Shown in pieces: positions 29,405 through 33,400 of a stretch of 64,000 nucleotides of DNA. The position numbers and the translations under genes are program-made. The stretch covers positions 121,644,001 to 121,708,000 of the forward strand of contig OX597817.1 in assembly GCA_951406725.2 (NCBI GenBank), read 5' to 3'. This stretch comes from Octopus vulgaris. Lineage: Eukaryota. A model generated the notes under the pieces. It saw only the letters and a program-made list of their open reading frames with translations. It was not told the DNA's origin and ran no database searches. Each line of letters opens with the position of its first letter. Position 1 is the first letter of the stretch.

Positions 29405-29838
29405 TGAGACAAGACCAGCAATCTCAGGGAGCTGTATGTCGACTACATCCACCCCAGTGATCAGTTGTTACTAATTTTATTGACCCCCGAGATGATGAAA
29501 AGCAAATTTGACCTCGGTGGAACTTGAACACAGAGCGTAGACACGGACGATGTACCGTTAAACATCTTACCCGGTAGAGTAACAATTCTGCCAACTCGCT
29601 GCCTTAAATTGACTTCTAATATTGGATTCAAACTCTGGCACAGAGCCACCAATTTGTGGGACCGATAAATCGACCACATCGACCCTAGTGATTCACTGAT
29701 AATTATGTTATCGACACCCCGAAAGGATGAAAGGCAAAGTGGACTTTGGTGGAATTCGAACTCAGAACGTAAGGACGGTCGAAATACTGTGAAGCACTTT
29801 GCCCGCCGAAGTAACAATTCTGCCAGCTCGCTGCCTTA
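29405..29838 (-). mobile_element. Two tandem diverged copies of the 11462 SINE family
   Basis: Each copy ends (plus strand) in TTCTGCCA(A/G)CTCGCTGCCTTA (29607, 29838), the reverse complement of the SINE head. B box and central domain present. Confidence 0.82.
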
Positions 29839-30037
29839 ACCATACTTGTAATAGTGCTGAATAATCAGCTTGTTTCCTCTTAAACAGTCTTCAGTTAGCA
29901 GATAGCTGTATTTATTTTTCACTAATCTATAGAGACAACTAATATATTACAGTTCTATATTTAAGCGAAGAGGAACTATGTACATTATTTACATTAATTA
30001 CATTTAACAGATATTTGTCCTCATCTTGTTTGTTGTT

Positions 30038-30080
30038 AACACGTTTCGGCTGATATACCCTCCAGCCTTCATCAGGTGTC
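30038..30080 (-). ncRNA. Minimal hammerhead, left-arm copy with 3-nt deletion at the cleavage site
   Basis: gacac-CUGAUGA-a-ggcug..cagcc-GAAAC-guguu; lacks 3 nt that are present in the right-arm copy. Confidence 0.65.
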
Positions 30081-30130
30081 TTGAGGAAATTTCGAACTTG
30101 GGTTCTTATTCGTAAGGTAGTTTTCAATGA

Positions 30131-30197
<67 letters not shown>

Positions 30198-30216
30198 CAC
30201 TATGTCATATGCCCGT

Positions 30217-30290
30217 GGACATATGGCATAATGGTTAAGAGCGCGGGCTAGTAACCCCAAGATTCCGAGTTCGATTCCAGGCAGTGACCT
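30217..30290 (+). other. tRNA-Thr(AGU)-like SINE head (Pol III A and B boxes)
   Basis: A box TGGCATAATGG 30224-30234, loop CTAGTAA, B box GAGTTCGATTCC 30267-30278. Acceptor stem is imperfect, so not called a tRNA gene. Confidence 0.8.
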
Positions 30291-30372
30291 GAATAATAAT
30301 AATAATAATAACAATAATAATAATAATAATAATAACCTTAGGAATGAGAACCCAGGTTCGAAATTACCTGAA

Positions 30373-30418
30373 GACACCTGATGAAGGCTGGAGGGTATAT
30401 CAGCCGAAACGTTGTGTT
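30373..30418 (+). ncRNA. Minimal type I hammerhead ribozyme (PLE type)
   Basis: Stem I GACAC/GUGUU, CUGAUGA 30378-30384, stem II GGCUG/CAGCC, GAAA 30406-30409, palindromic AACGUU stem III; predicted cleavage after 30413. Confidence 0.82.
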
Positions 30419-33400
30419 AACAACAAACAAGAAGAGGACAAATATCCGTCAAATGTAAATAATGTAAACTAATATATTGATTAGCGGAATGAACGATACG
30501 CTCAAATCAACATGAAATAATTCAGTCTTATGTCAATCTGCTTAAATTATAGTACATACTTTACAAAAATTTATTGCATTGTGTTTTAGAATTTTTTCAC
30601 GACTAAAATCCTAAAATCAAACAAAATTTGAAATTAGATTATAGTTAACTAAATTAAATAGTTCAACAAGACAGATCCCTGATTGATGACATCTAATTAT
30701 ATTCATTCCACTCTTGAATATGTTCGGGCGTAAGTCTACCAGCAGAAATGTTACTATTTTTTCGGGTTCTTTTCAGATTTGTTTCCTGCTATCCAGCGCT
30801 TATGACAATGACAGGTAAATAGACAGCGTTGTAAACCTTTCTGTAGTGAGATGTTGGATGACAAGGATAAATTCACTTTGTATAGTGGAGGTTTCCTGGA
30901 ATGAAATGGATTCTTACTACTCAAATTTCTAGAGCACAATCTAAATATCTGCTATTGTTAAATAAGATGTTATTGCATATTGGGTTATAGGGCTCATGAA
31001 TCAGTTATAAATGGGAAATACATTGTAAGATAGACATAGAGGAGCTTCGAAGTTAGTTATGTTGAACACATCATAAAATGCTAGGCAAAATAAACCACAA
31101 TATATCGCATGGCCTCAGGTTTTGCGTCTTGTCTACATGTAAGTTACTCTCACACAGTAAAAATATCACTTAAATCAACGAATGGCGTGTATAAATGAAA
31201 AACTATAATTAAATGAAATTATGATACGTGGGTTGTAGCTAATATCCCACACACGTTTATTAAAAACACATGAGACGTGCAAATCCAATCATATGTTAAA
31301 TATATTTTGGTAACAGTTTCATTTGGTGACGTAAATTACATATATTAAACTACGCGTTCTTCAATTATCAAGGTTTAAAGTAAAACCTGAGGTGTGATTT
31401 GGCTAACAATGATTTTGGAATTTGTAAGACTTGGTTCATAAACTCACTAATGAACATATCAAATCTCACGTTTTCGCGTATTTTTTCATTATTACAAATG
31501 AATCAAACGTGTAGTTTGTTGGAGATTTGTATGAGAGGCACATAAAAATGCAGTTTCCAGCAGCAACTTTATCTGCAAATGAACGGATGGTTGAAAAAAA
31601 ATTCCTCAGCTTAATAAGCGTATATAAAAAATCTCAAGTTCTATGAACAGCAGTAATCAAGTTTGGTATGCGTGTTACTTACACGAAGTTGTATGTTCTA
31701 GAGCAAAAACAATTCTAGTAATTAAAAATGTAAATTAGCTAATTATATATTTAAATATCGAATAGGCAAATGTTGGTCCATTTTCTTTTCAAATGTTTAA
31801 TTCTTCCATAAGACTGGCATATTTTACAATGCATCAATGAAATTACATTGCTCTACCTGTTAATCTGTAACACACAGCTTCAATAAAATATATTGAAGTA
31901 CAACTGCTGTTTACTTTTCTTTGATATTTCCCATAATGTAAATATTTTAGTACATTTGTAGAAATCCTAGACTTTAAATTCAGAACGAATTTACAGTGCT
32001 TTTTTTCCAATCGATCAATAAACTAGGCAAGAACTTTTAGACGTATACAGGAAGTGCATCACCATTAACTTTAACACTCAAGAACACTCCATTTGTTTCA
32101 ACGAGAGTTTCTAAATGTGATGCAGCTGATGTGTGCGTTCTCACTGCGTAGAATTAGATAAGTTGCCGGGTAACATAAAAATTAAACATAAAGCACTTTT
32201 TAGAATATAATTCTGCACAAACCACTGTTTTCGAAGCTGGTTCTAATATGAAATTCACAATTAAGAAAATGCGAGAAGAATAAAGTCATATCTCCCATTA
32301 CTTGGTGGCAAACAACATTTTAATTTTCAAACAATCTACAAATGTTTAGACCCGTGTATTTGTTTTTATGAGTGGGTGTGTATGTGTGTGTGAAAGATGG
32401 AGAGAGAGAGAGAGACGGAGAGAGAGAAAGAATGTGTACCAGTGTTATACATATTTAGACTCCTATAGCTAAAGAAGATACACCAAGCTTAGTTGCCCTT
32501 GAAACAATAAACGAAAGCAGGGTCAGTTAAAAATATCGTTGATATGTTTACCTGAAAACCTAAATTGTTCGTTAGAGATATGCCATAACACAGTGATAAT
32601 ATGTGTTCAATGAAGAAGTTGGTAACGCGTTATGTAATGAATATAAAATCTAAGTGAATTTATAAATGATCAACCTTTCTGAACTAAGGTATTATTTATA
32701 AAATATGTGTATATACTTGTGACTTGAACTTTTCTAATGAAAATGCAGTAGCGAATGTCTAACAGTGTGAGTGCATTTTCTGATCAGATTTTGTTACAGA
32801 TAGTGTGGCATGGCTCTAAGCTAAGAAATTTTACTCCATTTAAAGTTGCTCAACTATCTAAAAAATTGGTGCCAATTCGTCTGGTTTGTTGAACTGTAAA
32901 AGGATGAGATTCTATATAAAACCTTTCCAGCTATCCAAATAACGCAAATGAAACAAGAGATTATCTCTGATAAATATACACTGTATATTTAGAAATTACA
33001 TTACTTCATGCTAATTAAATCAATCCCAAGGCTAAATCTGTAAATGATTAATATAATTTTATTGAATAATGTTAGGAAGTTAGTTGAATAGTTGCAACAA
33101 TAGTGCGACGCACTATTCGCTAGTAGCTCTCTGCATTGTGCACTCAAATCTATCTAGCATCAGCTGGAATAAGTAAATACCAGATTTTCACTGGTATAAG
33201 TTTAAGTGTCTATTAATCTAGCACGAGTATTTTAACATTCTGCTAAATTAGGAAAGTAATTTAAAAAGTAACATACCTACGTTCGAAACAGATATATTTA
33301 CAAATATAATGTTCATGCAAAATCTCTTTTGCTCTAATATATCAACTGAACATAGATGTATATCAGGAAAACTTGTTATTTGGAAACTTGGAAGATAATG

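Follow-up and report, generated by a model that had tools for sequence, protein, structure and literature searches.

A fold-back insert in Octopus vulgaris derived from the tRNA-headed, hammerhead-bearing terminal repeat of a Penelope-like element

Penelope-like elements (PLEs) of the endonuclease-bearing (EN+) Penelope/Poseidon clade encode a reverse transcriptase (RT) together with a C-terminal GIY-YIG endonuclease in one open reading frame (ORF), and their pseudo-long terminal repeats (pLTRs) are found in partial tandems, according to the accessible portions of three accounts (PMC8557442, PMC4209133, PMC2377424). Insertions include an inverted, 5'-truncated copy and an extension of 30-40 bp, often at one end only (PMC8557442, in the part available), and the promoter is positioned within the pLTR. 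The minimal hammerhead ribozyme of these elements combines a long helix II with a bulged base, and has an AC/GU stem III that is palindromic (15.2-16.2) and a helix I of 5 bp, as far as the available text goes (Cervera and de la Pena 2014, PMC4209133). How PLEs are transcribed and integrated is poorly understood, and the accessible text of PMC8557442 asks for an in vitro system. We describe here an insert at positions 29937-30478 of a 64,000-nt stretch of Octopus vulgaris DNA (contig OX597817.1, positions 121,644,001 to 121,708,000; referred to as the window), with a tRNA-like head, an (AAT)n linker, a hammerhead-bearing tail, and a second, inverted arm. Its family shares with the EN+ PLEs the ORF organization, the partial tandems, the inverted truncated copy, the one-sided extension and the promoter position, and the hammerhead is likewise minimal, with the bulged base, the palindromic stem III and the short helix I. 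The insert is a short fold-back copy of a PLE terminal repeat, probably made from RNAs that start at the head and are predicted to be RNA polymerase III (Pol III) transcripts.

There are differences between this family and the described EN+ PLEs. The octopus pLTR bears a tRNA-derived head with A and B boxes (recognized in 18 of 29 copies, compared with 0 of 39 distant PLEs), at which most copies start. In addition, the octopus ORF has no shared run of four T residues (T4). The described Penelope promoter is of the Inr/DPE type known from long interspersed elements (LINEs), in the available part of PMC2377424. By analogy of layout, the closest known system is the Schistosoma Sm-alpha/Sj-alpha repeat, a dispersed repeat of ~300 bp in which a Pol III-type promoter is followed by a type I hammerhead (accessible text of PMC6765202 and PMC8490949). 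Sm-alpha has a canonical hammerhead and tandems, and no autonomous partner sharing its head is named in that text; in comparison, the octopus unit forms the terminal repeat of a PLE that has a coding region, and its insertions are fold-backs. Non-LTR retrozymes are also non-coding, pLTR-derived and hammerhead-bearing, with a length of ~300 bp (PMC7229834; bioRxiv 10.64898/2026.07.22.740005, both available in part), but they form direct tandems that yield circles, whereas the octopus unit is dispersed, inverted and tRNA-headed. In the accessible part of the latter source, Li, Clavereau and Pollet derive retrozymes from pLTRs, and the terms 'tRNA' and 'Pol III' occur 0 times.

No description of a tRNA-headed PLE pLTR, or of an octopus short interspersed element (SINE) driven by a PLE, was found in the literature. 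As Repbase, Dfam and the octopus repeat library lay outside this search, the family may already be catalogued under a plain Penelope or SINE label, or its short unit may correspond to an octopus SINE that already has a name. Octopus reportedly has tRNA-derived SINEs, said to have been named OK, OR1 and OR2 by Ohshima and Okada in 1994, which resemble the present unit in their tRNA-derived, Arg-like head. OR1 is a CORE-SINE in the accessible text of PMC4824008, while in the octopus PLE unit (AAT)n comes directly after the head. In an octopus repeat annotation paper (PMC13282606), the portion available has 0 occurrences of 'hammerhead', and two family motifs are absent from one supplement. Annotation pipelines would be expected to mislabel the short copies as SINE or tRNA.

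The parent element was reached from a tail locus (L026) that contained a GIY-YIG-like coding fragment; a search of the 2.8-Gb genome with this fragment gave 3,365 candidates. In 27 of 30 GIY-YIG loci (26 of 29 without the query's own), the head is located 3' of the ORF and on its strand, ~60 nt from the stop codon as a rule and mostly together with the linker and tail. Among 30 N-terminal loci, 28 have the tail directly 5' of the ORF start (the query contained 16 nt of tail). Nine of these 30 also have a head further upstream, and in four the ORF end or its untranslated region (UTR) is found beyond that head. In the parent unit, the ORF (RT and C-terminal GIY-YIG) is followed by a UTR of ~60 nt, the head, (AAT)n, the tail with its hammerhead and, in tandems, the ORF again. 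With the head behind the ORF end and the tail ahead of the next ORF, these two and the linker constitute the pLTR of an autonomous, head-to-tail PLE, probably of the Penelope/Poseidon type, and from the order of the unit the head occupies the PLE promoter position. The preliminary description of the window had proposed looking for an autonomous PLE that shares the tail, and this element has the head in its terminal repeat as well. A LINE-derived tail is ruled out by these loci.

The parent ORF was read as a 569-aa open frame with a YVDD sequence, a DKG motif and a C-terminal VYSIPxSCG-YKGET. Pfam RVT_1 matches it with E=2.7e-6, marginally short of the cut-off, and its 2,989 homologues carry PF00078, some also PF01541. 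The GIY-YIG assignment is by motif reading, with no endonuclease score from Pfam. No Cys-rich RT-EN linker of the Neptune/Nematis kind (described in the accessible part of PMC8557442) was seen in this frame.

The short copies have no letters that set them apart from the pLTRs of the coding element. The commonest letter differs in 0 of 201 columns between 49 short and 60 ORF-linked copies, and the divergence is similar (5.1% and 6.3%, respectively), so by these sequence comparisons the short form is no separate lineage. The (AAT)n repeat is internal to the unit, not a terminal simple repeat after a LINE-derived 3' end. The proposal of an independent SINE or retrozyme is therefore not upheld, as the head belongs to the terminal repeat of an autonomous PLE and no column is specific to the short form. 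As this family joins a tRNA-derived head to a hammerhead and a Penelope ORF, it offers a concrete route from a PLE to a hammerhead SINE.

A 20-mer from the head has 5,148 exact matches in the genome, one from the hammerhead core has 6,611 and one from the tail past the cut has 12,406, compared with 0 for the reversed controls. These counts, together with a divergence of ~5-6%, suggest a family of tens of thousands of arms. Ninety heads were sampled by position, from the start of one contig and with a few probable duplicates included. A tail is found downstream within 300 nt in 73 of the 90 and within 950 nt in five more, and an inverted tail is found upstream in 53. Head and tail, when searched separately, are thus linked in many copies, which rules out a chance nested insertion; neither this nor a LINE-type tail, the two outcomes that would have spoken against the preliminary description, was observed.

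The (AAT)n linker is itself a site of insertions. In five loci (L016, L019, L028, L005 and L018), 3' ends of at least three LINE families are located within it and separate the head from the tail. These LINEs encode a C-terminal region of the CCHC/RPDI type, and they resemble microsatellite-targeting elements of the Dong/R4 type. Those upstream of the tails in L016, L019 and L028 look like later insertions into the linker. In six other loci (L003, L007, L022, L075, L118 and L197), the linker contains a non-coding element of ~500 bp that ends in CTCTCACTC(AAT)n, for which Rfam gives simple-repeat noise only. It is likely a non-autonomous partner of the linker-inserted LINEs.

Fold-back structures were surveyed in 149 loci (90 positional, 58 similarity-ranked, and the window; L110 and L111 are one unit counted twice) and are present in 83. 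The ~40-nt PLE extension is on one arm only in 67 of these, on both arms in 1 and on neither in 15. A direct flanking repeat of at least 8 bp is found in 43 of the 83 fold-backs, compared with 8 of 249 shifted controls, and the length of this target-site duplication (TSD) has its mode at 12-13 bp. The inverted arms, the one-arm extension and the TSD peak bear out the proposed mobilization by Penelope-like machinery, and the TSD of the window is typical of the family. With thousands of fixed-end copies, such TSDs and measurable breakpoints, PLE priming, fold-back and in vivo ribozyme use become mappable.

The head was described as tRNA-Thr(AGU)-like. Its tRNA character is supported, as it aligns to host tRNAs with z up to 8, and 18 of 29 family copies reach at least 10 bits with a host-tRNA profile, compared with 0 of 68 shuffles. 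This profile replaced an A/B-box regular expression and relaxed ARAGORN, which were too insensitive or noisy; with it, 0 of 39 distant PLE 3' regions score. The A and B boxes are intact as the commonest letters across the family heads. The Thr identity, on the other hand, is not supported. The window has AGT at 30250-30252, but G30251 is private to this copy (56 of the 59 other heads have C there); 46 of these 59 have the anticodon loop CTACTAA and only one has CTAGTAA. Moreover, the head matches tRNA-Arg-TCG in 48-49 of 75 columns and tRNA-Thr-AGT in 44-46, in a comparison with 13 host tRNA copies of ~6 amino-acid classes, Arg-ACG being absent from the set. A Thr origin is therefore rejected, and Arg is the best sequence match among the host tRNAs tested.

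Two other tRNA-like regions were noted. A metagenome contig (L323) has a weak A/B-box-like stretch ~390 nt beyond a PLE-related RT ORF, with less than 6 bits in the tRNA profile and no adjacent hammerhead match. Seven clustered tRNA-Cys-like genes, one with the anticodon ACT, are found at L150:138-2854.

Most sense arms begin at the 5' edge of the head. In the 90 positional heads, 22 of the 5' ends are at +4 to +30, 45 at -10 to +3, 8 at -11 to -40 and 15 beyond -40; by eye, six of the eight ends at -11 to -40 were judged to be fold-back junctions that mimic the upstream sequence. Among the copies that reach +3, ~51 of 68 end within 13 nt, and 15 of the 17 that pass go beyond -40. The number of exact 20-mers drops from 5,148 in the head to 963 at ~70 nt upstream. 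In L198 and L201 (which share a junction) and in L215, ORF sequence is joined to the head at about -6 with no hairpin, and several copies begin at -6 to +2 without a hairpin junction. The pile-up at the head edge and the hairpin-free joins at -6 point to RNAs whose 5' end is ~13 nt upstream of the A box, the start expected for Pol III. A start at this distance fits type 2 Pol III promoters.

Pol III initiation at the head, as the preliminary description had suggested, is thus probable, given that copies stop at the 5' edge of the head (~51 of 68) and that the ORF has no shared TTTT (see below). As most copies begin at the tRNA-like head, the element likely relies on Pol III and gives off short, SINE-like copies by the thousands. 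SINEs normally parasitise LINEs.

The commonest-letter track of the ORF contains no T4 run, with ~4.8 expected from its composition (P=0.17 and 0.04 for two parts of the ORF; ~0.007 combined as a product). With redrawn third positions, P is 0.043 for the ORF body. In 29.3 kb of decayed copies there are 15 T4 runs (0.51/kb) and no T5, compared with 3.2 T4/kb in five other host RT ORFs, and 0 of 25 intact distant PLE ORFs are free of T4. The tRNA-like head and the T4-free ORF co-occur in this PLE family and are both absent in the distant PLE sample; this pairing in the sequences is suggestive, but no proof, of Pol III reading of the whole element. We regard Pol III transcription of the whole coding element as a tentative proposal; if true, the element would count among the rare coding retroelements driven by Pol III. 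In a fuller version, equally tentative, the whole ~2.9-kb element would be a Pol III unit with a captured tRNA promoter and a TTTT-purged ORF, in which occasional hammerhead cleavage licenses cap-independent translation of the uncapped RNA and the uncleaved RNA serves as template. In that version, this retrotransposon would be acting as its own SINE, and would be a living model for the origin of Sm-alpha-like hammerhead SINEs from Penelope elements. Hammerhead self-cleavage can induce cap-independent translation, in the accessible text of Lopez-Galiano et al. 2026 (PMC13725137). Such a role would be speculative here, because the first in-frame ATG of the parent ORF is located upstream of the cut. 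A mini-intron in the extension that would bring a post-cut ATG into frame was considered and rejected. No such joint is found among the RNA-seq joints listed, and the idea is further weakened by the unspliced frame, which stays open through the hammerhead in tandem copies, and by a relative with 55% identity that starts with a matching peptide in the same frame.

Several observations weigh against Pol III initiation at the head or Pol III reading of the ORF. The native palindrome coincides with the inferred start, and as a result a structural stop is not fully separable from an RNA 5' end. Four of the nine heads upstream of an ORF start have UTR beyond, so some templates started elsewhere or were multimers. 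The positional sample is limited to the start of one contig and has a few probable duplicates, and no intact full-length parent copy was found. For the absence of T4, the strictest null, in which codons of the ORF body were shuffled synonymously, gives P=0.098, and Phe/NTT codon bias by itself does not reach significance (P=0.12). The idea that the first strand is the AC-centred arm, with the extension on it, is not borne out, with no link between the AC/GT centre and the extension-bearing arm among the 83 fold-backs (by a rough regular expression). In two RNA-seq runs of a related organism, 7,545 and 6,239 reads map to the head-tail-ORF stretch, equally on both strands, and no start or end pile-ups are seen; the library type is uninformative on Pol III. 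No intron joint on this stretch is among the RNA-seq joints listed.

Two further features were seen in the RNA data for L212. At L212:1150-2070, A>G and T>C places number 34/36 and 41/36 in runs X21 and X22, and 25/19 in run X15; fold-back copies would form dsRNA of ~250 bp that ADAR could edit, and differences between species and copies confound these counts. A 55-nt go-back joint from the extension end (L212:1460-1514; 22 and 13 reads in the two runs) is off the hammerhead cut and probably represents one expressed genomic duplication.

If Pol III initiates at the head, the insert could be produced as follows. TFIIIC and Pol III would start the RNA ~6 nt upstream of the head, which leaves 13 nt to the A box. 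The RT/endonuclease of the element would nick AT-rich DNA with a stagger of 12-13 nt and prime near the fixed end of the extension. The cDNA would pass the mostly uncleaved hammerhead, reach the RNA 5' end, and there fold back at the 5' palindrome or switch template by microhomology, giving an inverted arm, with one arm ~40 nt short. Longer copies would arise by priming at a pLTR located downstream of an ORF.

Across 112 copies of the hammerhead, the commonest letters are those of the core, and 36 copies are fully intact. If CpG sites and 3-nt losses at the cut site are set aside, the most variable position is N7 (T in 90, A in 20), which is free in the consensus CUGANGA, and helices I and II covary among distant relatives. 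Most tails (92 of 100 positional ones) extend upstream past the predicted cut region. The 5' ends of seven of the 100 are located 0 to +5 from the predicted cut, and the following 24 nt contain none; this corresponds to ~6 independent ends at the cut, compared with 1.5 expected (P about 0.005), one being attributable to a palindrome and one to microhomology. With this modest excess and 92 tails passing the cut, cleavage probably occurred in a few percent of the templates, most having been uncleaved. The circular RNA suggested in the preliminary description is unlikely for the window locus on sequence grounds, because two cuts on the same strand are needed and the locus has one hammerhead per strand, the left one broken.

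Two same-strand hammerheads ~0.5 kb apart are present in L198, L199 and L215. L198 and L201, about 1 Mb apart, have one junction, in which ~240 nt of the ORF N-terminus is joined to the head at -6. This gives a same-strand tandem of ~0.5 kb, which could be a segmental duplication or else a mobile mini-PLE and from which circles might form. A shared mini-tandem family is not supported, as the junctions are mostly distinct and only these two loci share one.

The pile-up of ends at the head has another possible source. The head could be a dead relic of an old SINE in the 3' UTR of a Pol II-transcribed PLE, with the short copies being ordinary 5' truncations that stall and fold back at the palindrome. 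The native palindrome at the head edge (-7.1 kcal/mol) does match the fold-back centre, PLEs are strongly 5'-truncated and inverted (PMC8557442), and the Drosophila virilis Penelope has a LINE-like internal promoter with a DPE (PMC2377424), both according to partial texts. However, the equally stable helix II of the hammerhead (-8.1 kcal/mol) stops only ~7 of 92 copies, compared with ~51 of 68 at the head edge, and a fold at the palindrome does not account for the copies that begin at -6 to +2 without a hairpin junction. A dead relic is also at odds with A and B boxes that remain intact and with an ORF devoid of T4 runs. We consider this reading improbable.

The short copies might instead stem from an independent tRNA-SINE with a borrowed PLE pLTR tail and its own master genes, the ORF-linked heads being later recombinants. 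Head-initiated short copies outnumber UTR-bearing ones ~5:1, and one copy (L103) starts with the fold-back (GT) 5' form without an adjacent inverted head, a single case that hints at a short template. Sm-alpha, with a Pol III promoter followed by a hammerhead, is a precedent (PMC6765202, as far as available). Such a SINE is largely refuted, and quite unlikely, in view of the fixed position of the head behind the ORF (27 of 30 loci), the PLE UTR letters that the short copies bear up to about -6, the lack of diagnostic sites and the similar ages. Least likely by far is a non-LTR retrozyme, cut into monomers by its hammerheads and replicated through circular RNA. The minimal hammerhead, the ~6 independent 5' ends per 100 tails at the cut and the three loci with same-strand hammerheads are in its favor, but at the window locus the hammerheads are on opposite strands, with one broken, the loci examined have no tandem arrays of the short unit, 92 of 100 tails reach beyond the cut region, and no circle-type joint at the cut is among the RNA-seq joints listed. 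The head-initiated copy of a PLE terminal repeat is therefore the reading followed here for the individual features of the insert (Table 1).

The exact 12-bp TSD of the window, the linker and the minimal hammerhead are present as first described. The hammerhead has CTGATGA at 30378, the bulged A, a 6-bp helix II, GAAAC-GT-T, no loop III and a 5-bp helix I. The longer inverted tail on the left is also confirmed (29949-30130, 90% identical to the right tail, with ~38 nt extra). An inverted start of the head is present as well, although its bounds are revised from 30195-30211, and the left and right head copies meet there as a palindrome around GT.

Table 1. Features of the insert and its right flank (positions in the window)
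Feature	Position	Strand	Remarks
Left target-site duplication, AACTAATATATT	29937..29948	+	Exact repeat; family TSD mode 12-13 bp
~38-nt PLE extension, on left arm only	29949..29986	-	Continues into ORF N-terminus in tandem copies
Inverted pLTR tail	29987..30130	-	Hammerhead core 30075-30069; cleavage site short by 3 nt
(AAT)n linker, inverted arm	30131..30192	-	From sequence
Inverted head piece (first 22 nt)	30193..30214	-	Other head sequence deleted
Fold-back centre	30215..30216	.	Mirrors palindrome native to the PLE immediately 5' of the head
tRNA-derived head; A box 30224-30234, B box 30267-30278	30217..30291	+	Best tested host match Arg; private C>G at 30251
(AAT)n linker, right arm	30292..30334	+	From sequence
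pLTR tail without extension	30335..30466	+	In frame with ORF 5' end in tandem copies
Minimal type I hammerhead motif	30373..30418	+	Predicted cut after 30413
Right target-site duplication	30467..30478	+	Exact repeat
First downstream T4/T6 runs in host flank; candidate Pol III stop of right-arm transcript	30584..30597	+	Inferred

Rfam and ARAGORN reported no tRNA and no hammerhead for the insert. When folded alone, the hammerhead is slightly better than shuffles (z -1.9). Immediately to the left of the insertion, at 29502-29856 of the window, there are two ~123-nt copies of another repeat, 75% alike. Sequence similar to this repeat recurs in many flanks of the sampled loci.

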